Below are positions 1-39,580 of a stretch of 64,000 nucleotides of DNA, piece after piece (position 1 is the stretch's first letter; each line of letters opens with the position of its first letter). The notes below the pieces were generated by a model that saw nothing but the letters and a program-made list of their open reading frames with translations, was not told the DNA's origin and ran no database searches. The position numbers and the translations under genes are program-made. The DNA comes from a virus (lineage: Duplodnaviria; Heunggongvirae; Uroviricota; Caudoviricetes). The DNA is taken from the IMG/VR virus record IMGVR_UViG_3300038379_000173, positions 1 through 64,000 of that record, one strand, 5' to 3'.

Positions 1-315
1 CCAGAGGGAACGTTGACCGCCTACAAGTTGTGCAACGGTATCTTGGTTACCCTCGAAATTCCGGCGGAGGCTAAGCGCACTGCTTCGCTTGTCGGGCCCA
101 AATGCCGCGCGGAATTCGCTATCGTGCGCCACGTGGACCATCCGTGGAAGGTTGCACGTAGTAGTGCTCAGCGTCCTCATAATACGCCCGAAATTGTCTA
201 CATGGAGGGCGCCACCGTTCTCCCCGACCGTTTTGATGACGATATCCGCGTAGAGTGTACGCATGGGGTACATTTCTACAGGACTAAGGAAGAAACATTG
301 GCGAGCGGATTTTAG
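1..315 (+). CDS. pentapeptide-repeat-protein paralog, C-terminal domain (5' partial at window edge)
   Basis: frame-1 ORF is open from base 1; near-identical (nt) and ~93% aa identical to 9815..10129, the C-terminus of CDS 9395..10129. Confidence 0.6.
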   Translation, partial: PEGTLTAYKLCNGILVTLEIPAEAKRTASLVGPKCRAEFAIVRHVDHPWKVARSSAQRPHNTPEIVYMEGATVLPDRFDDDIRVECTHGVHFYRTKEETLASGF

Positions 316-320
316 GTAGT

Positions 321-542
321 ATGAAATCCATATGGAATGAGCGCCTAGCACTCCACCCAGATGTTTCTACGTTAGGTATAGAGATTAATCGCTTAGTAGA
401 GGATTTATTTAATAAATACAAAGCCTATAACCCTAGGGAAATTGCTACTGAAATCATATCAATCGCTTCAATAAAGGCCGCAAAGCGCATTTGTGAGTGG
501 AGACACCCACCAGATGATTGTGTAAACCACATGGTAGGATAA
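321..542 (+). CDS. hypothetical protein (73 aa)
   Basis: ORF starts 6 nt after the upstream stop. Confidence 0.4.
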   Translation: MKSIWNERLALHPDVSTLGIEINRLVEDLFNKYKAYNPREIATEIISIASIKAAKRICEWRHPPDDCVNHMVG

Positions 543-544
543 AC

Positions 545-868
545 ATGGATTGTGAATTAAAAGTACATTGGGTCGCGGCCCTGCGTAGCAAAAAATATAC
601 CCAAGGTCGAGGTAACCTACACAAAAGAACAAACGGCGAATTGTATTACTGTTGTATTGGTGCACTGTGCGACATTATAAACCCTTCCTGGAAGTATTCT
701 CTAGATAATGTAGGCGGCTGGTGGAATGGTTCACTGTACGGTATTGATACAGACACTCTCCATTCTATTGGATTATCTGAGTCAGACCAAACAGTACTTA
801 TTGAGATGAACGACAGGAAGAGTTGTTCCTTCGAAGAAATTGCTTCATATATAGAGAATACCCTATGA
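545..868 (+). CDS. hypothetical protein, paralog family W copy 1 (W-V-A-A-L-R-S-x-K-Y...CCxGxLCDI...FEEIAxYIE)
   Basis: ATG 2 nt after upstream TAA; shares N- and C-terminal motifs with 865..1230 and 29177..29503. Confidence 0.55.
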   Translation: MDCELKVHWVAALRSKKYTQGRGNLHKRTNGELYYCCIGALCDIINPSWKYSLDNVGGWWNGSLYGIDTDTLHSIGLSESDQTVLIEMNDRKSCSFEEIASYIENTL

Positions 869-1230
869 TGAACAAGGAACTAAAAGCACGCTGGGTGGCG
901 GCCCTTCGGTCTGGTAAATACGCCCAGGGCCAAGGATATTTGCGAGTGGGAGATAACTTTTGCTGCCTGGGTGTTCTGTGCGACATTATCGATAGTAAGG
1001 GGTGGACTCCAAATACTTCTCCTTATGACGGCAGCCAGTGGCTAGTCGATTCCATTCATTGGTGGTGGTCTGATGGCGATGGGTGTGCGGCTGGAGCACT
1101 TCCCGTTAAGGTCCTAAATAGGATTAACTTGTTCGATGAGCAAGAAGAATTTGTGTTGATGGATATGAATGACAGTGGTAAAACCTTTGAAGAAATCGCC
1201 CTCTATATTGAAGGAGCCAAAAATGTTTAG
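865..1230 (+). CDS. hypothetical protein, paralog family W copy 2
   Basis: ATGA start/stop overlap with previous gene; motif ARWVAALRSGKY...CCLGVLCDI...FEEIALYIE. Confidence 0.55.
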   Translation: MMNKELKARWVAALRSGKYAQGQGYLRVGDNFCCLGVLCDIIDSKGWTPNTSPYDGSQWLVDSIHWWWSDGDGCAAGALPVKVLNRINLFDEQEEFVLMDMNDSGKTFEEIALYIEGAKNV

Positions 1231-1465
1231 CGACAACGATACTTTTTATGACGACTATGGGGCATATGATTATGATGACGAACATTGCTTCTCGATGATG
1301 TTTGCGGACCCAGGCGGCCAAAGTGCCCTTAGGGCGGCCAGCCCAACTAATCCGCGCATTCATCCGTGCCCAACTTGTGGGGCGCAAGACCGGCTAACCC
1401 CCAAGGATGTTGCGTTGGGCTATCAATGTGATGATTGTGCGGCCACGGACGAAAGGGGATGGTGA
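1223..1465 (+). CDS. hypothetical acidic protein (80 aa)
   Basis: strong RBS aaggag 6 nt upstream of ATG 1223; Cys pairs near the C-terminus. Confidence 0.5.
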   Translation: MFSDNDTFYDDYGAYDYDDEHCFSMMFADPGGQSALRAASPTNPRIHPCPTCGAQDRLTPKDVALGYQCDDCAATDERGW

Positions 1466-1469
1466 AAGA

Positions 1470-1694
1470 ATGAATTTACTCCAACAACTGGAAAAACTTT
1501 TTCTTACTGGGTATAGTATAGGCGTGGCAGATTGTACGCTCAGTGCGTTGAAGCATGGCGTACAAGGCGCGTACACTATAAGCGATACAAGAAAGACACA
1601 AGCTACCAGGGAGTTTCTCTGTAGAGAGATAGCTAAAATAGAGGATGCTATCATAGCAGAGTTTACAAAGCCACCAACGCTATGTCTAAATTAA
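1470..1694 (+). CDS. hypothetical protein (74 aa)
   Basis: ATG 1470 preceded by aaagggg/ggtgaaag; starts 4 nt after upstream TGA. Confidence 0.45.
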   Translation: MNLLQQLEKLFLTGYSIGVADCTLSALKHGVQGAYTISDTRKTQATREFLCREIAKIEDAIIAEFTKPPTLCLN

Positions 1695-1843
1695 TCGCCA
1701 TAGAACGCCCTATATTGTGTCCGTCGTGCGGGCGCCCTAGCGGCTTAAAACAAGGGCCCGCCTGGATTGTTGTGCCCCAGGGAGGGTTAGCTTGCCAACA
1801 CTGTGGGGCAGTTGTTATTTTGCCTCTTAAAATCACTTGGTAG
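1682..1843 (+). CDS. small Zn-ribbon protein (53 aa; CPSCG...CQHCG)
   Basis: short ORF absent from the track (<60 aa); two CxxC pairs. Confidence 0.3.
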   Translation: MSKLIAIERPILCPSCGRPSGLKQGPAWIVVPQGGLACQHCGAVVILPLKITW

Positions 1844-2075
1844 CGACATCCTAGGCGAATTGCTACGTCATAGCTGGCTTCGGCTGGAAATACATATTGT
1901 GTCCCCAAGGGGTTAACGGTAGGCTACCATCGCCAAACTATACTACCCAATGATATGATTAGCAATGTGGGCGGCGGCCGTGGGTCCGTTATTCAAGTAA
2001 TGAGAGGTTCGAGACCTCTGCCGCTCATTCATTACAAATGATTCCACGGTGTGGAACACGGAGTGTGAGTAAAAA

Positions 2076-2264
2076 ATGAAAACGCCAGAACAAATAGCCG
2101 CCGCCATTAAAGCTCAGGCGGAACTTTGCCTCATCGCAAACATTCCTCATTTTGCCCCATACGACGGTCGTTGTTATTCATGCGGCGGCCAAATCTACCA
2201 TGTAGTAGATGGTAAAACATTCATTACTGGATGTCCATTGTGCCATAGGAGTTACTGTGACTGA
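2076..2264 (+). CDS. small Cys-rich protein (CYSCGG...CPLCH)
   Basis: ORF with Zn-ribbon-like Cys pairs; several hairpins lie upstream at 1950..2060. Confidence 0.45.
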   Translation: MKTPEQIAAAIKAQAELCLIANIPHFAPYDGRCYSCGGQIYHVVDGKTFITGCPLCHRSYCD

Positions 2265-2502
2265 AGATGCGCACTTTGATAAACTCCCCAGCTTGCTAAG
2301 AGACTTTGCCGACTATGTTCAAAGTAGCCCCGATAGGGTCGCTAGATGGCGGGTTATGTCTCCCCTCTCTGTTGAATATCGCCTAGCTCTCTCTGATGCG
2401 TGCAGGGGGATTGCTAAGTTAGTTGAGGCTATCCAGAAAGATGATAGTGGGGACTCATACGACACCTTTGAAAAACTCATGGCCTCTATGGGAGAAAGTT
2501 AA
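2257..2502 (+). CDS. hypothetical protein (possible GTG start)
   Basis: aggag sits 5 nt upstream of GTG 2257 inside the track ORF 2209..2502. Confidence 0.35.
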   Translation: MTEDAHFDKLPSLLRDFADYVQSSPDRVARWRVMSPLSVEYRLALSDACRGIAKLVEAIQKDDSGDSYDTFEKLMASMGES

Positions 2503-2529
2503 AATGATTCCTCGTAGGAACGGAGAGGA

Positions 2530-2796
2530 ATGCGGAGCGTGCTAAAACACTTCTTATTTGTCCGCCATGATAGCGGCGCGCGAGATGTAGTGGAATTGAG
2601 TGAAGCCGCGGCGACTATGGTCCGGGAACGGTATGTTTCACTTAAAGGAAACTGGCCGCTCGAAACTGTCCACGGCGACCTAGTACATATCAATTTCTCA
2701 AAAGTCACGCTCTATAGAGTTGTTACTCAAAATACCACCAAGAAGTCGCCAAATCCATTTAACGATGATGAAGTTTATGATGACGTAATGCACTGA
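2530..2796 (+). CDS. hypothetical protein (88 aa)
   Basis: RBS ggagagga before ATG. Confidence 0.5.
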   Translation: MRSVLKHFLFVRHDSGARDVVELSEAAATMVRERYVSLKGNWPLETVHGDLVHINFSKVTLYRVVTQNTTKKSPNPFNDDEVYDDVMH

Positions 2797-2983
2797 GGAT
2801 AGAATGAAAACGAAGAAGGGCCGCCGCATTCCCAATCAACCTATCTATATAGCGCCTGATGGAATAATTAGGTTCATGCCTAACAAAATAGTGAAGATGG
2901 ATAGTAGACCTCATTAGTGATTGGCGTGATGGCGACTATGTGTCGTTTAAACTGCCACACAATACATCTAGTGATGGTTATGC

Positions 2984-3181
2984 ATGGTGATGCGCGAATT
3001 ACTTAGTTCCTTCAGATGTCCCGATTGTGATTCAAGCGACATCGACATTAGTAGAGAGAACTACCATCCAGACGGAGCAGACATTGTGGATTGCGAAGGG
3101 TGTGGACATACCTTCCAAGTGTCGTACAAAATAGATACCGTGAAGAGAATTAAGACTCCAAGGGATACCGAAGATGTTTAA
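2984..3181 (+). CDS. small Zn-ribbon protein (CPDC...CEGCGH)
   Basis: ORF with two CxxC pairs. Confidence 0.45.
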   Translation: MVMRELLSSFRCPDCDSSDIDISRENYHPDGADIVDCEGCGHTFQVSYKIDTVKRIKTPRDTEDV

Positions 3182-3566
3182 TATCATAATGCGCATGGGC
3201 TCTTACGAAGACGCTATGGCGGGGGTTATGATGTGGGAGTCCGACATAGATTTTGACACATCCCAAGAAGCTCTCAACGACTTTGTGGATTTTCTTCTTG
3301 AATTTTACATAGAAGACAACTGCGACCCATTCATGGAGCATTCTGAAGAAGATATTATGGAGTGGCTCCATAGTCTGCCTATGCGCGCTTGTCACACTTT
3401 TTTTATGACAGCCCCAGAAACTTGGAATCCATTCGGACGACTAGATATACAAAATACTCTAGTTTTCATTGATAATGACGCTCTAGAGGATTTTACGCCC
3501 ATTGATATAGTGCGCGCAATGCAAGCAAAAGCAATAGTGGCGGGAATGGAAGGTAAGGATGAGTAA
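3174..3566 (+). CDS. hypothetical acidic protein (130 aa)
   Basis: ORF overlapping the upstream stop; highly acidic composition. Confidence 0.5.
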   Translation: MFNIIMRMGSYEDAMAGVMMWESDIDFDTSQEALNDFVDFLLEFYIEDNCDPFMEHSEEDIMEWLHSLPMRACHTFFMTAPETWNPFGRLDIQNTLVFIDNDALEDFTPIDIVRAMQAKAIVAGMEGKDE

Positions 3567-3810
3567 GGAAATTAAACTCTATAGTTGGCGCGCCAATGAC
3601 AATTTAGGAGAAAAGGCCGAAGCTATCGTAGCAGGGATGAGAGAACCGCGTATTGACTCAATGGATTTGCTTGCCGCGGTTTGGCATGAAGCTAAAAAAC
3701 AAGGTGTCAAATTATCGTTGAGGCGACTTGGTGCCAATTGGGCGACCGAAGCAGAATATACTCACGATGAAATTGAGGTCTGCTTAGAATACAATATAAG
3801 TTGCCTTTGA
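3559..3810 (+). CDS. hypothetical protein (83 aa)
   Basis: RBS ggaagg/aagga before ATG; ATGA overlap with upstream gene. Confidence 0.5.
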   Translation: MSKEIKLYSWRANDNLGEKAEAIVAGMREPRIDSMDLLAAVWHEAKKQGVKLSLRRLGANWATEAEYTHDEIEVCLEYNISCL

Positions 3811-4193: not shown

Positions 4194-4339
4194 ATTATAT
4201 TTGGTGGAACCTCTTCTCGTGGGTATGTTTGGCCGGTGCCATTATTCTGGCGCTCCAAGGTATTGATGGGTGGGGTTGGTTTTTGTTTGTAGCACTCATA
4301 ACGTGCGTGGCTCCCTCTGCAACTACGAAGAGTAGTTAG
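4190..4339 (+). CDS. small membrane protein (49 aa)
   Basis: ATGA overlap with upstream stop; hydrophobic, Trp-rich; not in the track (<60 aa). Confidence 0.35.
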   Translation: MNYIWWNLFSWVCLAGAIILALQGIDGWGWFLFVALITCVAPSATTKSS

Positions 4340-4367
4340 CTGTAGCTAACCATGTGGAGATTAAAGT

Positions 4368-4562
4368 ATGAAATACTGTGAATGTCAACATTGTGAACGT
4401 TTCCGCGCCAATATGCCCGAGCCGCGACTTCTAAAGGAATGCGCTGAGGCAATGGAGCGTCAATATTCTGCGTCGGAAGATAGCCGGAGGGGAAGGATTA
4501 AGCGCGGGCTTACCAAACAGGGTAATGTGCAAGCGCCAAAAACTCCCACAAGGAGTTACTAG
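4368..4562 (+). CDS. hypothetical protein (64 aa)
   Basis: RBS ggag before ATG. Confidence 0.45.
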   Translation: MKYCECQHCERFRANMPEPRLLKECAEAMERQYSASEDSRRGRIKRGLTKQGNVQAPKTPTRSY

Positions 4563-5401
4563 TGGAATTCCGCAAAATAAAATGCACATATCCCTTTGAC
4601 CCGATTAACGGGGGCCGCTTCATCATGCCGGCCAACACAATTTGTGCGGTATTAGATGTGGCGTTAACACCTAATACGGACAGTGGAGCTAGTGACTATA
4701 CAGTCATCACTCAAAATAATAAGTTTGGGAAAGTGGGTGGGGTTATACTCCCAGACACCTTTGTCAAGGTAACCCCGACCGAAAAAGTTCTTGCCACAAA
4801 ATATAAAGGCTATGACGTGGGCACCCTGTATTACGAGTTAGACAATGCGCTAAATCCTTCGCATCTCTTGATGTTTATTGATGGACGCTTTATTGAAGGA
4901 CCGATTATGTGCACAGATACTCCAGGGGATATAAAGGAAGTAAAGCAGACTCCAGAGTCGCCATCTGAACCAGTTAAACCAACGGTAAAAGAAATGACTA
5001 TGAAACCTATTAATCTAGACGATATCCACCACAATGGAAAATCTATCAAGGATGGTTTTGCCGGGAAAGCCAAAGAGACTACCGAAGAGGTTGTTAAGTT
5101 GCTTGGCGAAGTAGTTGCGGCAGATACTACTATGGAGCTAGAATGTGTGAAGGTTAACTTGCTTAACCGTATACAGGAGAGGGCTAAACTTATCAGTGTA
5201 GCCCAAGATGTTATGCGTAAGTCATCTTCTGTGAGTCTTTCTGAGTCGGCGGCCGATGATGTTAGGGGAAAAATAATCCCAACCCACGCGTACACACCCC
5301 CAGTCGTTGTATGTAAGGGGTATAATGGCCTGGAAGTACTTGTAGCATTTGCATTTGGGGCTATACTTATTCTAACAGCACTCTTTATGGGTTTGCTGTA
5401 A
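4562..5401 (+). CDS. hypothetical protein with C-terminal transmembrane anchor (279 aa)
   Basis: GTG start with aaggag 7 nt upstream; C-terminus VAFAFGAILILTALFMGLL is hydrophobic. Confidence 0.55.
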   Translation: MEFRKIKCTYPFDPINGGRFIMPANTICAVLDVALTPNTDSGASDYTVITQNNKFGKVGGVILPDTFVKVTPTEKVLATKYKGYDVGTLYYELDNALNPSHLLMFIDGRFIEGPIMCTDTPGDIKEVKQTPESPSEPVKPTVKEMTMKPINLDDIHHNGKSIKDGFAGKAKETTEEVVKLLGEVVAADTTMELECVKVNLLNRIQERAKLISVAQDVMRKSSSVSLSESAADDVRGKIIPTHAYTPPVVVCKGYNGLEVLVAFAFGAILILTALFMGLL

Positions 5402-5840: not shown

Positions 5841-6211
5841 GTCGGAAACATGGCATTATGGGCGGTATAGCTTGTGTCGACGGCACACGAATACCAATCA
5901 CAATGGTTTGCGAGCGTACTGTAGACTATATTAGAGACGACGTTGAATCGGGTAGGACACTTAAACACTCGTTAGAATTGGCCGCTAAAGATTTTAGTGA
6001 CGACTTTGATATAACCCCCGAATTAACTGCCAAAGATATGGCAGATTGCCTGTGGGTTCATTTCGGCGGAGACCTAGAGACAACTACACAAGAGTTTCAG
6101 TCTACTGTGTTTTGTAACAAATATTGTTACCTAGCAAACAAAAAAAGAATCTGTAAATTAGAATTGAACCACAGCGGTGCTCATTATGATGGGCATTTAG
6201 GATGGTGGTAA
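5825..6211 (+). CDS. DUF433-like protein (motif GGIACVDGTRIPI)
   Basis: motif resembles the conserved G-x-P-x-I-x-GTRIPV core of DUF433; start uncertain (5825, 5831 or 5858). Confidence 0.45.
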   Translation: MAMRISRKHGIMGGIACVDGTRIPITMVCERTVDYIRDDVESGRTLKHSLELAAKDFSDDFDITPELTAKDMADCLWVHFGGDLETTTQEFQSTVFCNKYCYLANKKRICKLELNHSGAHYDGHLGWW

Positions 6212-6961: not shown

Positions 6962-7213
6962 TTGTGTTGTAGCGTATATCATTGCTTAATGAGCATTACT
7001 CAATTAACTTCGTTTGCTTATCATTTTGATGAAAAGACCGTTGAGCTTTGGCTGGTAAAAGCCGATATCACAAAACAACAAATAACTACTGATAAAGTAG
7101 CAGTAAGGTCCATTAGACTATTGCGGCAATTGCCTATACCACGAAAGCTCCCAAAGACCAAGAGTGGTTGGCGCACACAGTTGAAACATTGGGAATTAAG
7201 GGCGGATTTTTAA
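6962..7213 (+). CDS. hypothetical protein (83 aa)
   Basis: ORF only; weak support. Confidence 0.3.
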   Translation: MCCSVYHCLMSITQLTSFAYHFDEKTVELWLVKADITKQQITTDKVAVRSIRLLRQLPIPRKLPKTKSGWRTQLKHWELRADF

Positions 7214-7224
7214 GTTGCGCAGCT

Positions 7225-7950
7225 ATGGACGAACATTCACTTTCCGCCGACGTTATATTAGAAGTTATCCATGGTTCAAGGGCCTATGGTACCCACCATC
7301 CTGATAGCGATGTAGACTACAAAGGGGTAGTGTTGCCAACAACCCCTGCCATTTATTTTGGATTTGGACACTTCGAACAGAAAGATAAATGGGCCGACGG
7401 CGTTGACCGTGTATGGTACGATTTGCGCAAGTTTTGCCGACTGGCCCTGATGTGTAACCCTAACATCATTGAGGTCCTTTGGGTGCCGCCAGAATGTATT
7501 AAGGTGTGCACCGATATTGGCCACGAACTCATAGAAATGCGCCAGAGTTTTCTTTCCAAAAGAATCTTTAGGTCATTTGCCGGGTATGCTTATGACCAGG
7601 GAAAGAAATTGGCGGCAAAGGTAGAAAGAGGCGAACAGCCAAACTGGAAACATGCTATGCATCTAGTGCGCCTTTCTAGGATGGCGAACGAGATAGCAAG
7701 TAATGGTTCCATTATAGTACGGCGGCCGGACGCAGAAGAATTGAAAGAAATACGCGCCGGCCGTTGGAGTTACGACAAAATTATGGCGCATGTCGAGTTC
7801 CTAAAGGAATCCACGCACGTCCTTGAGAGTAGTAGTCCGCTACCAGTCCACCCTAATGATAGGGGCGTTGAGGAGTGGGTGGTTGGAGTGATACAACGGA
7901 GATTGCTTGGCGATGATATATATCGAAATTATGGATGCGTTAAAGAATGA
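7225..7950 (+). CDS. pol-beta-superfamily nucleotidyltransferase
   Basis: G-S-x9-D-S-D-V-D motif (GSRAYGTHHPDSDVDY) near the N-terminus; track ORF starts at TTG 7168, ATG at 7225. Confidence 0.7.
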   Translation: MDEHSLSADVILEVIHGSRAYGTHHPDSDVDYKGVVLPTTPAIYFGFGHFEQKDKWADGVDRVWYDLRKFCRLALMCNPNIIEVLWVPPECIKVCTDIGHELIEMRQSFLSKRIFRSFAGYAYDQGKKLAAKVERGEQPNWKHAMHLVRLSRMANEIASNGSIIVRRPDAEELKEIRAGRWSYDKIMAHVEFLKESTHVLESSSPLPVHPNDRGVEEWVVGVIQRRLLGDDIYRNYGCVKE

Positions 7951-9394: not shown

Positions 9395-10129
9395 ATGAAC
9401 GACTTCGAAAAACTCATTGCGGCCCTCCCGGCCCACCGTTTGTATGTCGATACTGACGGCGCCCAAGGCGCTCGAATTGAGATGGTGGGCGCAAACCTCT
9501 GGGGCGCAAATCTCAGGGGCGCAGACCTCAGGGGCGTATACCTCAGTGGCGCAAACCTCTGGGGCGCAAACCTCGAGGGCGCAAACCTCAGGGGCGCAAA
9601 CCTCAGGGGCGCAAACCTCTGGGGCGCAAACCTCTGGGGCGCAAACCTCGAGGGCGCAAACCTCAGGGGCGCAAACCTCTGGGGCGCAAAGCTCGAGGGC
9701 GCAGACCTCAGGGCTGCAAATCTCGTGGGCGCAAACCTCGGGGACGCATACCTCGGGGGCGCAAATCTCGACGGCGCAGACCTTTCTAACGCCACTCTCC
9801 CAGACTTTCAATTGCCAGAGGGAACGTTGACCGCCTACAAGTTGTGCAACGGTATCTTGGTTACCCTCGAAATTCCGGCAGAAGCACGCCGCACTGCTTC
9901 GCTTGTCGGGCCCAAATGCCGCGCGGAATTCGCTATCGTGCGCCACGTGGACCATCCGTGGAAGGTTGCACGTAGTAGTGCTCAGCGTCCTCATAATACG
10001 CCCGAGATTGTCTACACGGAGGGCTCTACCGTTTTCCCGGATTTGTTTAATGACGACATTCGCGTAGAGTGTACGCACGGCGTACATTTCTACAGGACTA
10101 AGGAAGAAGCATTGGCGAGCGGGTTTTGA
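9395..10129 (+). CDS. pentapeptide-repeat protein with ~100-aa C-terminal domain
   Basis: about 20 consecutive GANL(W/R/E) pentapeptides; the C-terminal domain is duplicated at 1..315. Confidence 0.85.
   Translation: MNDFEKLIAALPAHRLYVDTDGAQGARIEMVGANLWGANLRGADLRGVYLSGANLWGANLEGANLRGANLRGANLWGANLWGANLEGANLRGANLWGAKLEGADLRAANLVGANLGDAYLGGANLDGADLSNATLPDFQLPEGTLTAYKLCNGILVTLEIPAEARRTASLVGPKCRAEFAIVRHVDHPWKVARSSAQRPHNTPEIVYTEGSTVFPDLFNDDIRVECTHGVHFYRTKEEALASGF
9488..9786 (+). repeat. 15-bp tandem repeat array (ggcgcaaacctcNNN, ~20 units) inside the pentapeptide-repeat CDS
   Basis: visible periodicity encoding G-A-N-L-x; also explains spurious long antisense ORFs 9268..9795 and 9308..10201. Confidence 0.85.
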
Positions 10130-10130
10130 T

Positions 10131-11261
10131 ATGAAATTACAGCCACTAAATGTCCTTTTAGACGGTAAATTAGATGGTCCGCTAGACCCTATTAGTGTCA
10201 TCCGTCACTTTCATCCATCTCTCCCGCTCGTTGGCCTAAAATACCATAAAACAGAATCCCCAAAATTCCATCCCATCGTGCGCCAATGTCGCGGAACTGT
10301 GTTGGAGTTACCAACCTTTCGTATAGTTGCCCGCCCTTTCAACCGCTTCTTTAATCTCCACAAGGATGTTGACGGCCAGGAAGGCTTCACTTGGAATCAC
10401 TTTACAGCCGAAACGAAGGAAGATGGCACACTTATCATCGCATTCAATTACGAAGGAAGATGGTTAATTAAAACAGGGGGTAGTTGGGCTCTCGGCAATA
10501 TTACCGCAAATGCGCCAACGTGGCAGCAGGCATTTTTTGATATCCTGCCGGTAGCTAATTTTTCTGTTTTAGACCCAGCCTATACTTATATGTTCGAATT
10601 GTGTACGCCATACAACAAAGTAGTAGTAAAATACGACCAACCCAAAGTCTTTCTTCTTGGTGCTATAAATACCTCGTCTGGCTGGGAATTAGACCATTCC
10701 GTGCTGGATTATATTGCTAGCCGCCTTGGATGTGCGCGACCTACAGTTTTTAGTTGCTCAGGCAATAGTGATTTGAAACGCCTAGTTGATAGTCTCTCTA
10801 AAGGCGATGTCAAGGAAGGTTTCGTACTACGCGATATAGCGTGCAGACGTATCAAAGTAAAAACGGCAGAATATCAAGCCCTACACCATCTAAAGGACAA
10901 CGGCAACATACTGCTGCCGCGGCGCTTGGCCGCCCTTGTGCTCTCTTCGAGGGAAAAAGAAACTCTCGCCGTATTCCCTGAAATGGCCGGGGCTCTGTCA
11001 AAGGTATCCGCAGACCTATATAATGCTATGGCGGACGTAGAGAACCTTTGGTGGGCCCACCGACAATTAAGCCGCAAGGATTTTGCGATAGAAATAAAGG
11101 ATACCCCATTTACGTGGGTGCTCTTTGGTCTCTATACAAATCCACCGAGTGATGTTCGCAGCACAATCTATGCAGCATTTGCGAATAACGTCGAGAAGGT
11201 GGCCCAAAAATTGTGGGGCGGCCAGGTGTTTCAGTTTGATTGTGCAGCGGCAGATGAATAG
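10131..11261 (+). CDS. rnlA: T4 Rnl1-type RNA ligase
   Basis: 376 aa (T4 Rnl1 is 374 aa); nucleotidyltransferase motif I K-E-D-G-T (ETKEDGTLI) matches T4 Rnl1 KEDGSL. Confidence 0.8.
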   Translation: MKLQPLNVLLDGKLDGPLDPISVIRHFHPSLPLVGLKYHKTESPKFHPIVRQCRGTVLELPTFRIVARPFNRFFNLHKDVDGQEGFTWNHFTAETKEDGTLIIAFNYEGRWLIKTGGSWALGNITANAPTWQQAFFDILPVANFSVLDPAYTYMFELCTPYNKVVVKYDQPKVFLLGAINTSSGWELDHSVLDYIASRLGCARPTVFSCSGNSDLKRLVDSLSKGDVKEGFVLRDIACRRIKVKTAEYQALHHLKDNGNILLPRRLAALVLSSREKETLAVFPEMAGALSKVSADLYNAMADVENLWWAHRQLSRKDFAIEIKDTPFTWVLFGLYTNPPSDVRSTIYAAFANNVEKVAQKLWGGQVFQFDCAAADE

Positions 11262-19713: not shown

Positions 19714-20937
19714 ATGACCATCACTCGCCTCATTAAAACAGACGCAGATGCTAACAATAATAAGTTTTGGGAAGCCGTCCTAGACCCCAATGGCGATAAA
19801 GTAATGTGCCGCTGGGGTAGGGTTGGCGCAAACGGTCAGCGCAAAACATTCAACGGCGGCCAACATTACATTGATAGGAAGGTCAAAGAAAAAACTTCCG
19901 AAGGATATGTTATCGCACAGGTTGTTGGAGGCGGCGAAACTATCACATGTGATACTAGTGCCATCAAAACTATTGCACGTCAGCAAATTGTAGCAGACAA
20001 AGAAACAGTCGCCCTTGTAGATGAATTGGTTGCGTGGAACATCCATAATATAACACAAAAATCTACGATGACAGTAAGTGTCTCATCTGGTACTATCTGT
20101 CTGCCGTCCGGTCTAGGTGTGCTGACACAGTCCGCAATAGATGAGGCCCGTAGACTCCTAAACACCATCGGCAGTAGTTCCAGGACAAATGACCCGGCTG
20201 GACACAAAACTGTTATCAACAAATACCTTTCCCTCGTTCCACAGATTGTTCCGAGAAAGCGCGGCTGGATTAATACCATTTTTTCTACACCCGAAGAAAT
20301 TGCCGCTCAAGAACATCTTTTAGATTCGCTCCAGGCAACTATTCAGACCCTTACACCGACTCAATCTTCTAAGGTCTTTGATGTTACGCTGAACAAACTC
20401 CAAGATGGGAATGAAGTTGGTCGCATTACAAGATTGTATGACGCAACGCGTCAAAACATACACCAGTCGTGTAGTCTACGACCAATCAATATCTATAAAA
20501 TAACTATGGGTGCAATGCGAGAGCGATATAACAAGTGCCAAGTTGGTAACCCAATGGAGTTATGGCATGGAACTGGAGTTGGCAACCTATTATCTATTTT
20601 GAAATGCGGCCTCATAATCCCATCTCATGCTTCGCATGGCCGTAACTTTGGCAATGGAATATATTTAACTGACCAATCTACAAAGGCACTTAATTATGCT
20701 GCTGGTTATTGGGATGGTAGGAGAGAGAAGCGATGTTTTATGTTTTTGGCAAACGTAAAAATGGGCCGGCCGTATACACCAGGGCCATATGACAGGAGTA
20801 ACTTCCCTCGGAGCGGCTATGACAGTGTATATGCCAAGGCTGGCTTCTCTGGGATTTTGAACAACGAAATGATTGTGTACGATACAGACCGAGTCGATTT
20901 AACATTCATTGTTGAATTTTCTGAAAGGGCATTATGA
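19714..20937 (+). CDS. PARP-like ADP-ribosyltransferase (N-terminal WGR domain + PARP catalytic domain)
   Basis: WGR: FWEAVLDPNGDKVMCRWGRVGANGQ; catalytic: ELWHGTGVGNLLSILKCGL (H-G-T), GNGIYLTDQSTKALNYA (Tyr), NNEMIVYDTDRVDL (Glu) align to PARP1 LLWHGSR / GIYFAD / YNEYIVYD. Confidence 0.85.
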   Translation: MTITRLIKTDADANNNKFWEAVLDPNGDKVMCRWGRVGANGQRKTFNGGQHYIDRKVKEKTSEGYVIAQVVGGGETITCDTSAIKTIARQQIVADKETVALVDELVAWNIHNITQKSTMTVSVSSGTICLPSGLGVLTQSAIDEARRLLNTIGSSSRTNDPAGHKTVINKYLSLVPQIVPRKRGWINTIFSTPEEIAAQEHLLDSLQATIQTLTPTQSSKVFDVTLNKLQDGNEVGRITRLYDATRQNIHQSCSLRPINIYKITMGAMRERYNKCQVGNPMELWHGTGVGNLLSILKCGLIIPSHASHGRNFGNGIYLTDQSTKALNYAAGYWDGRREKRCFMFLANVKMGRPYTPGPYDRSNFPRSGYDSVYAKAGFSGILNNEMIVYDTDRVDLTFIVEFSERAL

Positions 20938-23683: not shown

Positions 23684-24605
23684 CGACTTCGTCGGCAACG
23701 CCCACGTTGTTGAAAAACTCAAATTACTCACCGAACGTGCGGCCAATGATAGTTTTGCTCGCATCCCAGATATGGCTTTCCTTGGGCCGCCAGGTCATGG
23801 CAAGAATTTTTGTGCCAAAATCCTGGCAGACAAACTAAAGAGAGGCTTTGTAGAGATTAATTCAACCACGGTGCGCGACCCATTTGTATTCCGCCAATTC
23901 ATTGTTAATGGTGAATACATTTCCAGTGGAGTAATTATCCATTTAGATGAATGCCACCAACTGCCGCGACGTATCCAAGACAATTTGCTAAGTGCTCTAG
24001 AGCACCCACGCCAACTCCACACCGCACATAAGGACCAATTGTTCAAGGATTCTTTGCCAGAAAATCTCTCGTTTATTTTCTCAACTACTCACGCTGGAAA
24101 TTTGCGAAAGCCTCTCCTGTCTCGCCTTGAGACAATAGAATTCCTCGAGTATACCGAAGACAACCTCATGGAGATGGCGGCTAAGTATCTACACAGACAA
24201 TATGGGTTGGCTCTAGACGCCATTGAGCCTAAGGCGCTAGCTGAATTAGCGAAACGGAGTCGTTCAGGCCGCCAAACTATTAGGTTCTGTGATAACTTAA
24301 TGCGCCTTAAGGAACTAAACGGTTGGGATAAAATAACACATGATGCGGCCGTCCAATGCTTTAAAATCATTGGAGTAGATGCAACTGGACTGACGCGAGT
24401 TGACAGAAAGATGCTAGCATATATGGCAAAAGCAGGGTCACACGTCGGTCTAGAAACACTGGAGGCCGTGCTTGATATTTCGAAGAAGGAAATATTGAGC
24501 AACATTGAGCCGTTTTTATTACGCAAGGGCCTCATGGTTCGCCACACCAGCGGGCGTCTTATAACACCACTTGGCAAGGCCCTAATGGAGGCGGCAAATG
24601 ACTAG
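23622..24605 (+). CDS. ruvB: RuvB-like AAA+ ATPase (Holliday-junction helicase family)
   Basis: Walker A FLGPPGHGKN, Walker B IIHLDECH, RuvB-like winged-helix C-terminus (TRVDRKMLAYMAK...GLETLEAV...IEPFLLRKGLMVRHTSGRLITPLG). Confidence 0.75.
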   Translation: MMKPLEDTKGPWSLNAPLTFNDFVGNAHVVEKLKLLTERAANDSFARIPDMAFLGPPGHGKNFCAKILADKLKRGFVEINSTTVRDPFVFRQFIVNGEYISSGVIIHLDECHQLPRRIQDNLLSALEHPRQLHTAHKDQLFKDSLPENLSFIFSTTHAGNLRKPLLSRLETIEFLEYTEDNLMEMAAKYLHRQYGLALDAIEPKALAELAKRSRSGRQTIRFCDNLMRLKELNGWDKITHDAAVQCFKIIGVDATGLTRVDRKMLAYMAKAGSHVGLETLEAVLDISKKEILSNIEPFLLRKGLMVRHTSGRLITPLGKALMEAAND

Positions 24606-25335
24606 CGAGAATGATTCACTAAAGGCAAATACAGTATCCGCAAAAAAACCTGACATAACAGAGTGGATGCGCGAGAATAATAGAATGTTTGTGCATATAG
24701 CCGGCAAGTGTTCTACATCGACCAAAGAATTTGGTGCAGATGAAGTGGATGTACACACACACGAGGAAGTGTTAGCTCAACGCGATTTGTGTCAAGAAGC
24801 TCGCTTGCATGCATTGCATGCACTTGAATCATTTGATTATGAGAACTTTCCAATAGAAAAATTAGGTAATTATGTTTATACTGTCGCACTTAATGCTACT
24901 CGTGAGTATGTCATGGACAATCAAAATAATATAAGGGTGCCCGGCTCAGCACGTAAGGAAAAACAAAAACTTAATGAGTTGTCAAACAAGGAACTCATTC
25001 AACTACCAAAATCTATCAATCTGCCGGTATATAATGATAGTGATAGACACGATAGTCCTGGATATATGAGTCTATCAGGTTTGATAGTAGACCCTGCGCC
25101 AACTCCTGATGTTGTGGTGGATGAGAAGGAACAAATTAGTATACTAATGGAAGAACTTGAAAGTCTGCGGCCTGAAGAACAAAAAGTATTGAAGGCAAGA
25201 TGGTTTAACGGTAGCACCCTCGATGATATTGCACTCCGTGAAGGTGTTAGTCGGCAAAGAGTTCATAGTTTACAGAGTAAAGCGATGGAGAAATTACGCA
25301 AGAAAGTCCTGACTCGACTAAGTGAGGAAGAGTAA
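24598..25335 (+). CDS. sigma-70 family RNA polymerase sigma factor
   Basis: C-terminal region 4.2 HTH (STLDDIALREGVSRQRVHSLQSKAMEKLR); region-2-like segment. Confidence 0.65.
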   Translation: MTSENDSLKANTVSAKKPDITEWMRENNRMFVHIAGKCSTSTKEFGADEVDVHTHEEVLAQRDLCQEARLHALHALESFDYENFPIEKLGNYVYTVALNATREYVMDNQNNIRVPGSARKEKQKLNELSNKELIQLPKSINLPVYNDSDRHDSPGYMSLSGLIVDPAPTPDVVVDEKEQISILMEELESLRPEEQKVLKARWFNGSTLDDIALREGVSRQRVHSLQSKAMEKLRKKVLTRLSEEE

Positions 25336-34292: not shown

Positions 34293-34589
34293 GTGTCGTG
34301 TCTCGTCATGGATGAACAATTAAGAACACTAGAGCGTGCCGCCGCCCAAGGAGACACTGAGGCCCAACAGCAATTGGAGAGGCAAGGAGCCAGGTGTGGC
34401 TCACCGTGGGATGAATATGTAGGGAAGAACATTTATTGTCACTTTTCAGATAAAAGAGATTCCAGTGGAGTATTGCGTTGGGTTAAACGTGCTGGTTATC
34501 ACTATGTTGGTCGTGTAGATAGTATACAAAGTAATAAAATTCGTATTGTTAATTTAACACTAGCATTGCTAATAGAAGTAACACCATGA
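34293..34589 (+). CDS. hypothetical protein (98 aa)
   Basis: ORF. Confidence 0.4.
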   Translation: MSCLVMDEQLRTLERAAAQGDTEAQQQLERQGARCGSPWDEYVGKNIYCHFSDKRDSSGVLRWVKRAGYHYVGRVDSIQSNKIRIVNLTLALLIEVTP

Positions 34590-35251
34590 AAATAGTCGCA
34601 ACCTCAGACACTCACGGCCAACTTGGGAAAGTCAAGCTGCCGCCAGGCGATGTATTGGTCGTCGCTGGGGACATCCTAAGGAACTTTACACTAGACCGTC
34701 ACATAGATTCACAAATACAGTTGAAGCATTTAAAGTGCGACTTTGTGCCGTGGCTTATAATGTGCCGCAAAATTTACAGCACCATCCTGGTCATCCCTGG
34801 CAATCACGACAGGTGTTTTGAACATCTAGAGAATGAGTGTAGGCGGCTTGTTGAAGAAGTTGATAGAACATTCCTATTGATTGACCGCACTATCGATATT
34901 GATGGAGTAAAATTTTACGGTAGCCCTTGGACGCCTTGGTTTTACGGTGATGTTTGGTCGTTCAATATACCAGAAAAAGAGGGCGCGGCCAAAGCAATTT
35001 GGGAAAAGATACCCGCAGATACTGACGTTGTGATAACGCATGGGCCGCCTTATGGTATCAGGGATTATTGTGATAGACACGCTGGGTGTTCAGTGTTGGG
35101 CTCTAGGATTTTAGAAATAAAGCCGCGCGCCCATATATTTGGACACATCCACGAAGGTGCGGGACAGTCGTTAATAGACAGTACCCTATATGTTAATGCA
35201 GCATTCATGGATAAAGGTAGCGGGCCGCAAGTTTCTGAGGTTACCAAATGA
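34586..35251 (+). CDS. calcineurin-like metallophosphoesterase (second copy)
   Basis: motifs SDTHGQ, GDIL, PGNHD, GPPYG, GHIHEG. Confidence 0.8.
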   Translation: MKIVATSDTHGQLGKVKLPPGDVLVVAGDILRNFTLDRHIDSQIQLKHLKCDFVPWLIMCRKIYSTILVIPGNHDRCFEHLENECRRLVEEVDRTFLLIDRTIDIDGVKFYGSPWTPWFYGDVWSFNIPEKEGAAKAIWEKIPADTDVVITHGPPYGIRDYCDRHAGCSVLGSRILEIKPRAHIFGHIHEGAGQSLIDSTLYVNAAFMDKGSGPQVSEVTK

Positions 35252-37370: not shown

Positions 37371-37654
37371 CTAGAGGAATGTTTTTCAAAAAAGCTATAC
37401 AACTGACTCATGATGCCCTAGAGGCAAATAAAAAAAGAGAGGTAGACAGAACGCGCGAAAAAGCACAACTCGAAATACCCAAAATATACGAAGGAATAAA
37501 TAAGGCTGCGGCCAGAGGAGAAACTAATCTTGCTTGGGGTGTAGGAGATGAGCACAATGAATTTTTTGATGTTATTCATCAAGAACTTCAAGCGGAAGGT
37601 TTTGGAACCTACAGTAAAGGAGAATGTATCTATATCTCATGGAGAGATTGGTAG
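37367..37654 (+). CDS. hypothetical protein (95 aa)
   Basis: ATGA overlap. Confidence 0.5.
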   Translation: MTRGMFFKKAIQLTHDALEANKKREVDRTREKAQLEIPKIYEGINKAAARGETNLAWGVGDEHNEFFDVIHQELQAEGFGTYSKGECIYISWRDW

Positions 37655-38124
37655 TGCTTAAACTTCTCTTCCTAGACATTGATGGCGTTCTAAACACCCA
37701 TGACTTTGACGAGATAGCTAACTCCAATACCATCGAGAGAGATAAAGTAGCACTACTAAACCAAGTATTAGACCGCACTGGATGTCATTTGGTTATTAGT
37801 AGTGCTTGGCGCTACACCATTCTAAATGGCGCACAAACTCTCCTCGGCTTTGAATATATGCTGCGCTCTCACTCCATTCATTGTTGCGGGAAGGTTCATG
37901 GTCATACATGTAGCGACGAAGCAATTGATGGAAGTTTGGTACGCGAAGCCCAAATACTCAATTATCTGAATGTACGGACAACGTTTGGACAAAAATTTGC
38001 AGTGGTGGATGATTTACCGCTTCGACTCCCAAAGGATGTGTTTGTACAAACAGACGCAGAGTGTGGACTAACACAATCAAATGTTGATAGACTCATAGAA
38101 ATACTAGGGGAACATGACAGTTAA
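37639..38124 (+). CDS. HAD-superfamily phosphatase (T4 Pnkp-phosphatase-like DxDGT motif)
   Basis: motif I LLFLDIDGVLN, motif II VISSAW, motif IV VVDD. Confidence 0.6.
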   Translation: MERLVVLKLLFLDIDGVLNTHDFDEIANSNTIERDKVALLNQVLDRTGCHLVISSAWRYTILNGAQTLLGFEYMLRSHSIHCCGKVHGHTCSDEAIDGSLVREAQILNYLNVRTTFGQKFAVVDDLPLRLPKDVFVQTDAECGLTQSNVDRLIEILGEHDS

Positions 38125-38433: not shown

Positions 38434-38715
38434 ATGAAAAAGCGTCCATTCTTAAATATCCAAGTGTCGCGCGCTGGCACTTCTTCCAAAGACCCAGATG
38501 TGACTATCCATTGGGATGGGCCGGCCCCAACAACTCAAAAGCGCGACAAGATATATAACGCCATCCATGCTCTATTAGCTGCCCTTGGTCCAGTGCCGCG
38601 CGGCAACTGGGAAGTAACAGTGCGGGCTGAAGATATTGATGGTTATTTTAAAAGGACACCCAAGGATGTTGGGGGTATATTAAAGGAAGAAGAAAAGGAG
38701 GGTCAACCAAATTAA
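38434..38715 (+). CDS. hypothetical protein (93 aa)
   Basis: ORF followed by a terminator. Confidence 0.5.
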   Translation: MKKRPFLNIQVSRAGTSSKDPDVTIHWDGPAPTTQKRDKIYNAIHALLAALGPVPRGNWEVTVRAEDIDGYFKRTPKDVGGILKEEEKEGQPN

Positions 38716-38717
38716 AA

Positions 38718-38749
38718 GGCAACGTTAGTTGCCGCCAAATTATTATTTT
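38718..38749 (+). terminator. rho-independent terminator
   Basis: ggcaac-gtta-gttgcc hairpin followed by gccaaattattatttt. Confidence 0.7.
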
Positions 38750-39119
38750 GGGGGTGAATTAGCTTCGATTAGTATTGCCAAAATATCCGTGCAGGTCGTG
38801 GTGGAGTAGGCCACGTTAAACCGCTCCAAAGTTTAAATGCCAAGACTACGGTCAAAGCAAGCCGGTTCGCCGGCATCCGCGGCTATCGCGTTGTTCGCAG
38901 CGCGCCTGTCGCACTCGTCGCCTAACGAGCAATTAGGTAAAGGCTCCGGGCCTCCTCTCGGAAGTTCCTATGAGGAGTCTAAGTAATAGGTACTAATACA
39001 TAGACTATTTGCTCAATAGAAATTGAGATAGGTTGGTTGAACCGACAAAACAACCCAAGCTTGTGGATGAATGGATATAGCGGAATATTGAGACGCGGGT
39101 GCAAGTCCCGCCACCTCCA
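38750..39119 (+). ncRNA. ssrA: probable tmRNA (ssrA), CCA not encoded
   Basis: 5' GGGGGTG pairs with 3' CACCTCC including a G3-U wobble; discriminator A; T-arm GCGGG-TGCAAGT-CCCGC; 3' end GACGCGGGTGCAAGTCCCGCCACCTCCA closely resembles the E. coli ssrA 3' end; 5' GGGGGTGAATTAGCTTCGA resembles tmRNA 5'; internal frame ends ...SAPVALVA-TAA at 38923..38925; about 370 nt with no protein ORF. Confidence 0.6.
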
Positions 39120-39133
39120 TCGAAAGGGGTTTT

Positions 39134-39580
39134 ATGCGTGCCAAATCGCTTCGGCTTCATACATTCCCAGAAGATGAGAATGTATTGCGGACTAAGTGTC
39201 GTGAAGTAACAGTTGCGGACATCGATACAATACAGAAAGTCGCCCCAGAAATGTATCATTTGGGCCGCTCGCTCGCCGCGGCAGCTATAGCTGCCCCCCA
39301 AGTGGGGCTTGACTTAGCTTTCTTCGTTCACTGCGGATTGCGCTCTGAAGTAGTGATAAATCCCCGCTATAGGGTTTTGTCATACGCCTCAAGCGTGGTG
39401 GCCCCAGAGGGATGTTTGAGTTTCCCAGACAAAGTCCAAGACGTTGCACGTTGGAATTGTATAGCAGTAGATTACTTGACGTCGCGCTGGACTGTAGTAG
39501 AGAAACATCTCTATGATTTTGAAGCAAGAGTTTTTCAGCACGAGGTTGACCACCTCGAAGGTAAATTGTTCATTGATTGA
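39134..39580 (+). CDS. def: peptide deformylase
   Basis: three PDF motifs: G-L-AAPQVG, EGCLSFP, QHEVDHLEG. Confidence 0.85.
   Translation: MRAKSLRLHTFPEDENVLRTKCREVTVADIDTIQKVAPEMYHLGRSLAAAAIAAPQVGLDLAFFVHCGLRSEVVINPRYRVLSYASSVVAPEGCLSFPDKVQDVARWNCIAVDYLTSRWTVVEKHLYDFEARVFQHEVDHLEGKLFID

Follow-up and report, generated by a model that had tools for sequence, protein, structure and literature searches.

A one-piece tmRNA gene immediately upstream of peptide deformylase in a clade of large uncultured phages

The tmRNA gene and the adjoining deformylase gene

We analyzed a 64-kb stretch of DNA from a member of the Caudoviricetes (positions 1 to 64,000 of the IMG/VR record IMGVR_UViG_3300038379_000173, called the window below), in which an interval of about 370 nt lies immediately 5' of an intact gene for peptide deformylase (def). 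A sequence-only reading had proposed that this interval is free of open reading frames (ORFs) and is a probable phage gene for transfer-messenger RNA (tmRNA, ssrA). This proposal is borne out by a covariance model, a relaxed gene-finder search, a thermodynamic fold, and the comparison of eight syntenic copies, and the interval is a genuine and complete phage-encoded one-piece tmRNA gene. All of the testable defining features of a one-piece tmRNA are present, apart from the pseudoknots PK2-PK4, whose region is divergent.

The gene occupies 370 nt on the + strand (38750-39119), as placed by Rfam, ARAGORN, the minimum free energy (MFE) fold, and seven other phage loci, the mature ends being those that we infer. 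Over its full length (model positions 1-374), the Rfam tmRNA model RF00023 aligns to 38750-39122 with 89.9 bits (E = 1.3e-33), against a gathering score of 47 bits, and it is the sole Rfam family matched anywhere in the window. With its threshold lowered to 95% (-ps95), ARAGORN reports a tmRNA at 38750-39119 with the resume codon GCC at 38839 and the 28-codon tag AKTTVKASRFAGIRGYRVVRSAPVALVA. No ORF of at least 50 aa is listed on the + strand between 38716 and 39133, in agreement with the ORF-free interval first described. An acceptor stem, a T-arm, and a long helix 2 emerge from the unconstrained MFE fold, which has a z-score of -3.68; of 100 shuffled sequences, none folded equally well. The whole element is also found at 100% identity on an independent JGI contig (L003), so it is not an assembly artefact. 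The near identity of its 3' end to that of E. coli ssrA was correctly noticed at the outset: 25 of the last 28 nt match and three differ, and the E. coli sequence used in that comparison is fully identical to the ssrA annotated in 5422 out of 5426 genomes.

The def gene begins 14 nt beyond the end of the tmRNA and encodes 148 aa (39134-39580, + strand). Its product matches PF01327 (E = 2.3e-30; 105.7 bits against a cut-off of 22.8), and the motifs AAPQVG, EGCLS, and HEVDH are intact, so the adjoining deformylase of the initial proposal stands. A Shine-Dalgarno-like AAAGGGG, read from the sequence, lies at 39123-39129, with 4 nt between it and the ATG at 39134. On the other side of the tmRNA, between it and the stop codon of the upstream ORF (38713-38715), is the hairpin GGCAAC-GTTA-GTTGCC (38718-38733). 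It had been described as a clean terminator bounding the gene, a description that does not hold: the stem is 6 bp long with no immediate T-run on the + strand, and a terminator scan calls it on the - strand only.

Relatives of the window and the tmRNA-def arrangement

Homologs of def are at most 40% identical and proved too distant to find relatives of the window, so we used PhoH, encoded 1.2 kb downstream, instead. One PhoH homolog was 83% identical, and others formed a series with 48-61% identity, on contigs as long as 170 kb. The clade set consists of the window and seven loci derived from the PhoH search (L082, L085, L086, L087, L088, L089, and L091); a further contig, L090, is shorter, has the same gene layout and Rfam score as L089, and was counted with it. 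Gene order is conserved in all seven further loci, and each has an Rfam tmRNA in the same slot (7/7, or 8/8 with the window), with scores of 59.7-86.7 bits, the lowest being that of L082 (59.7 bits). A called def lies downstream of the tmRNA in seven of the eight loci, and an uncalled def-like tblastn match is present in L087. The window, L086, L089, and L091 have 14-17 nt between the two genes, and L085 has 46 nt; a tRNA lies between them in L088 and an 80-aa ORF in L082, where def is 433 nt away. In both L082 and L088 the tmRNA adjoins a tRNA. The isolated phages Caulobacter phage Cr30 and 023Pt_psg01 also carry def but lack a tmRNA in its vicinity, which indicates that the tmRNA-def arrangement is specific to this clade.

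Searches beyond the clade returned little. The tmRNA had no blastn match among 50,697 phage records (INPHARED), and scans of IMG/VR with the def protein and with two gapped tmRNA patterns found no homolog. Pattern scans of metagenomes and genomes recovered tmRNAs of other lineages that share a G at T-loop position 55, without any close relative; the nearest were 59-65% identical, no better than false positives. Because this level of identity fails to separate true tmRNAs from false positives, we name no donor lineage or host. The closest bacterial PhoH matches, at 42-46% identity, were to Planctomycetota, which we judged too weak for a host call.

The tmRNA is phage-encoded: hallmark genes of phages surround it, and related phages have kept it. 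Within the window, ORFs are small and closely packed on one strand, and the encoded proteins include rIIA, rIIB, a T4-type RNA ligase, and a clamp loader (PHROGs), as well as PhoH, Dam, a uracil-DNA glycosylase, a sigma factor, and the RNA-repair proteins RlaP and HAD_SAK_2. The source contigs are phage-sized (148,759 bp and 167,041 bp). No isolated phage is close, as rIIA identity to isolated phages is below 60% throughout. Among the window genes is a set of RNA-repair type, comprising an RlaP nucleotidyltransferase, a T4 Rnl1-like RNA ligase, a metallophosphoesterase, and a HAD_SAK_2 phosphatase, and there are also genes for a WGR-PARP protein, a sigma-70-family factor, and a pentapeptide-repeat protein (7168-7950, 10131-11261, 34586-35251, 37624-38124, 19714-20937, 24598-25335, and 9395-10129). 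Most relatives in the clade have large tRNA arrays downstream of PhoH; ARAGORN finds no tRNA gene in the 64 kb of the window, and one or two in L082. Thg1 occurs in L088, a SpoU methylase in L085, and a group I intron in L087 (69.8 bits). These arrays and accessory features lie at 9308-16628 in L086, 6175-7860 and 8371-8559 in L087, 4774-5514 and 5589-8640 in L088, 5181-7742 in L089, 5562-8482 in L091, and 12086-12607 in L085.

Other tRNA-like and tmRNA elements were met during these searches. An IMG/VR scan with the 3' 25-mer of the tmRNA recovered only a different element of 76 nt, on L001. It is one of a group of tRNA-like mini-elements, 67-76 nt long, that have a 7-bp acceptor stem with G3:U70 and share the same T-arm, GGGUGCAAGUCCC, but lack normal D and anticodon arms. 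They lie at L001 2689-2764 (+), L067 4781-4849 (-), L069 3665-3732 (-), L073 7535-7601 (-), L074 5893-5960 (+), and L077 7178-7244 (-), one on a viral contig and five in Alphaproteobacteria (Methylocystis, Bosea, Beijerinckiaceae, and two metagenome-assembled genomes, MAGs). ARAGORN calls none of them, and their best Rfam matches are sub-threshold (a tmRNA with the middle deleted, or mascRNA-like). In L067 a second tRNA-like element directly follows the mini-element, and in L073 a 439-aa ORF abuts it. A recurrent IMG/VR element of about 95 nt, GGCGGTGCGGCGTGGAGA...ACAAAGCGGGTGCAAGTCCCGCCACCGCC, has the tRNA-like ends GGCGGTG/CACCGCC and that same T-arm with G55, is likewise not called by ARAGORN, and occurs on L004, L006, L010, L014, L016, L019, L023, L024, L026, L027, and L029-L032. 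On L081, an unrelated phage-like contig with a def homolog, a tmRNA at 4233-5284 (+; Rfam 95.7 bits) lies 1.1 kb from def and is split within its T-loop by about 675 nt overlapping a LAGLIDADG-like ORF, with the 3' T-stem and acceptor strand (CCCAG-CGCCTCCA) resuming at 5272-5284. The insertion is probably an intron or homing element, and Rfam calls no group I intron in it at E <= 0.01. Another phage-like contig, L080, has an array of 26 tRNAs followed by Cpn10 (GroES) and def (7-3614); a stretch at 3028-3266 within the array weakly resembles archaeal RNase P RNA (31 bits; gathering score 84).

Structure, tag, and T-loop of the tmRNA

To assess covariation, we aligned the eight clade tmRNAs, which are 43-69% identical relative to the window copy, and derived a 60-pair consensus structure with RNAalifold. 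Standard pairs fill 91.2% of the consensus cells, a figure somewhat inflated because the structure was built from the same alignment, compared with 35-46% when partners were slid by 1-3 columns. Double changes that keep pairing occur in 41 of the 60 pairs, against 8-17 in the slid controls, and none of 500 column shuffles reached any of the observed pairing measures. The consensus core, made up of the acceptor stem, T-arm, helix 2, and the PK1 stem P3, is also the core that the Rfam model imposes independently. The core structure of the tmRNA is thus maintained by compensatory evolution over eight syntenic phage copies.

The acceptor stem pairs GGGGGUG (38750-38756, with G3 at 38752) with CACCUCC (39112-39118, with U70 at 39116), followed by the discriminator A at 39119 and the trailer UCG. 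This pairing, G3:U70, and discriminator A had all been read from the letters, and the unconstrained fold recovers the stem. Across the eight copies every cell of the stem is paired, with double changes in three of the seven pairs. G3:U70 itself is present in all eight while acceptor positions 4, 5, and 6 covary, as predicted by selection for alanine identity. The predicted T-arm, GCGGG-UGCAAGU-CCCGC, is present at 39095-39111 with G55, the second loop position, at 39101; its 5-bp stem encloses a 7-nt loop and is 100% paired, with four of five pairs covarying. Helix 2 joins a 5' strand at 38769-38796 to a 3' strand at 39057-39091 in both the MFE fold and the RNAalifold consensus, and in this region (consensus helices 2-4) 12 of 17 pairs show double changes.

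Pseudoknot PK1 follows at 38797-38828. Its stem P3 (38797-38801/38811-38815; CGUGG/CCACG) is 100% paired across the copies with two covarying pairs, and its stem P4 (38802-38807/38823-38828) is UGGAGU/GCUCCA in the window. P4 cannot be written into a nested consensus, and a shuffle test on single sequences was uninformative, so the argument for this stem rests on sequence differences between copies. A script found P4 stems of 5-8 bp with differing sequences in six copies: UGGAGU/GCUCCA, UGGAG/CUCCA, UGUGGU/GCCACG, GUAUGAU/GUCAUGC, UGAUGACC/GGUUAUCA, and GAUAGUU/AAUUAUC. For the other two it returned only an out-of-register 4-bp stem (L086) or no P3 match (L087), and both were read by eye from the alignment. 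Beyond the tag, an equivalent of helix 5 (38921-38937) pairs CCUAA, which includes the stop codon, with UUAGG. This helix (consensus helix 8) is 87% paired and is kept in all copies; in L089, where the stop is UGA, the partner strand carries the matching U-to-C change.

The tag frame runs from the resume codon GCC through 28 codons to the stop TAA (38839-38925, with the stop at 38923-38925), as given by relaxed ARAGORN and by comparison, and it is the frame without a start codon, ending in SAPVALVA, that had been picked out from the sequence. The leader UAAAU directly precedes the resume codon (38834-38838) and aligns to the Rfam consensus UAAuU|GCa; it is exact in four of the eight copies, the others having AAAAU, UAACU, AAAGU, or AAAUU. 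In every one of the eight copies this frame reads without interruption from the resume codon to a stop in the corresponding place, and none of the 218 aligned codons is a stop, compared with 3 and 12 stops in the other frames. Against the nearest relative, L082, conservation is highest in PK1 (94%) and in the tag (90%), in a tmRNA that is 69% identical overall, and the eight differences in the tag alignment comprise four synonymous and four conservative changes. The tags of the relatives are AKTTVKARRFAGVRAYRVVRNAPVALVA (L082), AKTTVKARRFSGLRSAKARMGSSTALVN (L085), VKNDVTRVLGLTRKVVARRAVALAA (L086), VENSVSASRRYYGTRARVACNAVALAA (L087), AKKSIKVSRRISGPRAARVSRGASLAAVA (L088), VKTLKTRRLSGLRSASVRTAVALAA (L089), and VKTSVKTRRFSGVRSSKVRIGATASLAA (L091). 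Together with that of the window they are 25-29 aa long and carry 4-8 Lys/Arg and 0-1 Asp/Glu, giving a net charge of +3 to +8, compared with about -2 to +2 for six bacterial or metagenomic tags recovered for comparison. Seven of the eight have predicted degron ends of the ssrA type (ALAA in three, ALVA in two, and SLAA and AAVA), and L085 ends in ALVN. In E. coli, a tag ending in -ALVA is an effective degron, with a half-life of about 13 min for LacI-LVA compared with about 8 min for LAA (PMC3511798). The clade tags also have a common [S/R]R-x-x-G-x-R core. In the window a hairpin within the tag ORF, GCCGG-UUCG-CCGGC (38861-38874), encodes an RFAG motif and corresponds to consensus helix 6 (97.5% paired; double changes in four of five pairs). 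A second structured segment at 38879-38912 contains stems of the MFE fold and corresponds to helix 7 (83% paired; double changes in five of six pairs). As the RRFSG-type core of the tag overlaps the covarying helix 6, peptide and RNA constraints are inseparable there.

The G at T-loop position 55 had been noted as the possible mark of a divergent variant. The G is real, and that worry is settled by its partner, the dinucleotide AG in the D-loop analogue (38761-38762), which stands in place of the GG of canonical tmRNAs. Four of the clade copies combine G55 with AG and the other four combine U55 with GG (4/4), and across 18 distinct tmRNAs with G55, drawn from the clade, metagenomes, and Omnitrophota and Clostridia MAGs, AG is present in all 18. 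The loop UGCAAGU is also found in Omnitrophota and Clostridia tmRNAs, and the T-arm of the window occurs in phage tRNAs that ARAGORN accepts. In tRNA, G18 contacts pseudouridine 55, and by analogy G55 and the D-loop A may form a co-varying tertiary contact. This co-occurrence suggests that G55 is a coherent variant rather than evidence of a decaying gene, and the pair provides a natural double mutant with which to probe how T-loop and D-loop make contact in tmRNA. Our literature search for A18/G55 covariation found no paper describing it, and we do not claim novelty. Among the tmRNAs with a G55 T-loop is an Omnitrophota-type family with the tag ADKLSWANRSFGPVALPLAV, whose tags end in LAV or FAV and not LAA. 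It includes L068 (4563-4947, in an Omnitrophota MAG), L033, L037, L039, L043, L044, L047, L050, L055, L058, L060, and L064, some of which needed the relaxed ARAGORN threshold.

Expression, alternative readings, and relation to known systems

Near-consensus sigma-70-like promoters lie 10-11 nt 5' of the tmRNA in four relatives, with -35 elements TTGACG, TTGACC, TTGAAA, or TTTACA, a 16-nt spacer, and TATAAT or TATTAT (at approximately 6608-6636 in L086, 2350-2378 in L087, 1972-2000 in L088, and 2484-2512 in L091). There is no terminator between the tmRNA and def, which together with the promoters suggests a single host-polymerase transcript giving both tmRNA and def mRNA. None of the eight copies encodes CCA, and in all eight a U directly follows the discriminator, so the 3' end would need endonucleolytic trimming and CCA addition. 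We therefore picture a transcript that contains the tmRNA and continues into def, whose tmRNA 5' end would be cut by RNase P and whose 3' end would be cut after the discriminator and then receive CCA from the host CCA-adding enzyme. Host alanyl-tRNA synthetase (AlaRS) would charge the tmRNA, and host SmpB and EF-Tu would bring it to ribosomes that have stalled on broken or non-stop mRNAs. The peptide on such a ribosome would gain an alanine and the 28-residue tag, whose ALVA end may pass it to ClpXP-type proteases. The likely benefit would be to keep ribosomes available during infection while phage-induced decay or host nuclease defences are cutting mRNA, and the adjoining deformylase and the RNA-repair genes of the same genome may serve the same general purpose.

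We believe, with a probability of roughly 0.8, that the element is a functional one-piece tmRNA gene long resident in a clade of large (~100-170 kb) uncultured phages. Besides the inflation of the pairing figure mentioned above, several points weigh against this view. Default ARAGORN calls no tmRNA in the window and detects two of the eight clade copies, so a check with this program came out negative at default settings and positive, at the same coordinates, only at -ps95. Changing G55 to T and restoring CCA in silico did not rescue the default call, and these two features alone do not explain its failure. Position 55 is a G where the Rfam consensus has U, and the T-loop of L082, GGCAGAA (5990-6014), is more aberrant still, with no U54 and with G for A58. 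The domain at the canonical position of PK2-PK4 (38938-39056) is divergent: it aligns poorly to the Rfam model, with low posterior probability and part of the model deleted, and covariation backs only two hairpins there (39012-39027 and 39031-39055). Of the elements proposed for a covariation check, helix 2 and PK1 were supported, as were, in the PK2-PK4 region, only these hairpins; published mutagenesis reportedly found PK2-PK4 to be replaceable. A recognisable sigma-70 promoter is absent before the tmRNA in the window, as it is in L082, and these two tmRNAs are probably read through from upstream. Finally, a tblastn search with one E. coli SmpB sequence as its only query found no SmpB-like ORF in the 149 kb of clade DNA covered, so that the tmRNA presumably relies on SmpB, AlaRS, EF-Tu, and proteases of the host.

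Other explanations account for parts of these data. We rejected a protein-coding interval because of the lack of an ORF together with the strong base-pair covariation. A recently captured host ssrA, or an attachment-site remnant, without function in the phage, would fit the fact that tmRNA genes are common integration sites and that ssrA fragments are known in prophages (PMC9004378). Such an origin is hardly credible for a full-length gene that keeps a conserved slot in eight phages at 43-69% identity with compensatory changes, that has no match in the phage records and no scan hit better than false positives, and that has no integrase noticed among its annotated neighbors; we rejected the attachment-site version because the gene is full length and clade-conserved. 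The element might instead act as tRNA-like punctuation, recruiting RNase P and a 3' endonuclease to free a def mRNA with a short leader, its tag portion being vestigial. The 14-17 nt between discriminator and def in four loci, the U that follows the discriminator in every copy, the absence of an encoded CCA, and the tRNAs next to the tmRNA in L082 and L088 would all suit that role. PK1 and the tag frame would not be needed for it, yet they are the best-conserved segments, with no stop codon in the frame and degron ends on seven of the eight tags, and def lies 433 nt away in L082; we consider punctuation very improbable.

It is also conceivable, if rather unlikely, that a tmRNA-derived RNA, while still entering stalled ribosomes or binding SmpB/AlaRS, has taken on an altered purpose, in which the long basic tag gives tagged proteins a fate other than the one conferred by the host tag or the RNA displaces host tmRNA by outcompeting it, for example blunting a host response that depends on trans-translation. 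The length and charge of all eight tags, their common core, the two extra hairpins in the ORF, and the non-canonical T-loop speak for this. On the other hand, the ordinary ssrA-type ends of seven tags (ALAA, ALVA, SLAA, and AAVA), with ALVA acting as a degron in E. coli, suggest the usual fate, the basic core coincides with a covarying hairpin and may reflect a constraint on the RNA rather than the peptide, and nothing points to a phage-specific partner. A related and likewise unlikely idea is that the tmRNA-def unit is a phage-tailored trans-translation system and not a simple top-up of host tmRNA, as its long, strongly basic tags, in-frame hairpins, and remodelled T-loop/D-loop contact could indicate. 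The basic tag could then give rescued peptides a phage-specific fate, or the RNA could be tuned to active host defences, working under mRNA and tRNA nucleases together with the phage RNA-repair genes.

Set beside E. coli SsrA and the RF00023 model, the functional tmRNA that we favor has the same acceptor stem with G3:U70 and an A discriminator, T-arm, helix 2, PK1, UA-rich leader, GCN resume codon, hydrophobic Ala-rich tag end, and stop-codon helix. It differs from E. coli SsrA in being phage-encoded, in its strongly basic 28-aa tag (compared with the acidic 10-aa ANDENYALAA), and in its two extra ORF hairpins, divergent PK2-PK4 region, and lack of an encoded CCA. Its T-loop UGCAAGU and D-loop AG contrast with the UUC T-loop start and GG of the Rfam consensus, a combination that it shares with tmRNAs of Candidatus Omnitrophota and Clostridia MAGs. 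Those tmRNAs score more than 100 bits against Rfam, carry unrelated tags such as the Omnitrophota-type one given above, and are about 61-65% identical to the window copy, which is no better than false positives.

Mycobacteriophages of cluster C, such as Bxz1, carry a tmRNA. An ARAGORN survey found tmRNAs in 402 of 18,146 phage genomes (PMC9004378), and the many translation genes of huge phages include those for tmRNAs, SmpB, and peptide deformylase (PMC7162821). A phage deformylase is exemplified by cyanophage S-SSM7 (Frank et al. 2013, as cited in PMC7162821). Phage tmRNAs and phage deformylases are thus already documented, and the window adds another phage tmRNA. Like those reported, it is a complete gene in a large lytic-type phage with other translation and RNA genes and an apparent reliance on host SmpB. 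Unlike them, it has no sequence match in INPHARED, belongs to a clade known from metagenomes only, and has a position immediately upstream of def that is fixed across the clade; it is also a one-piece molecule, unlike the two-piece forms of marine phages. The deformylase resembles phage enzymes such as that of S-SSM7 in being short with intact EGCLS and HExxH motifs, and it is only 31-39% identical to the deformylases of isolated phages.

What sets this tmRNA apart is its fixed unit with def in an uncultured clade, a tag that is long and basic and contains hairpins, the combination of G55 with AG, and its under-detection by ARAGORN. Because that program, which at default settings finds two of the eight copies, was used in both of the published phage tmRNA surveys cited above, those surveys probably undercount. 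These results do not overturn current understanding and are unlikely to surprise a specialist. They add a well-supported and structurally validated tmRNA family from an uncultured clade of large phages, and the conserved tmRNA-def arrangement, which in four members stands behind a sigma-70-like promoter, points to a compact and probably early-expressed unit for the maintenance of translation.

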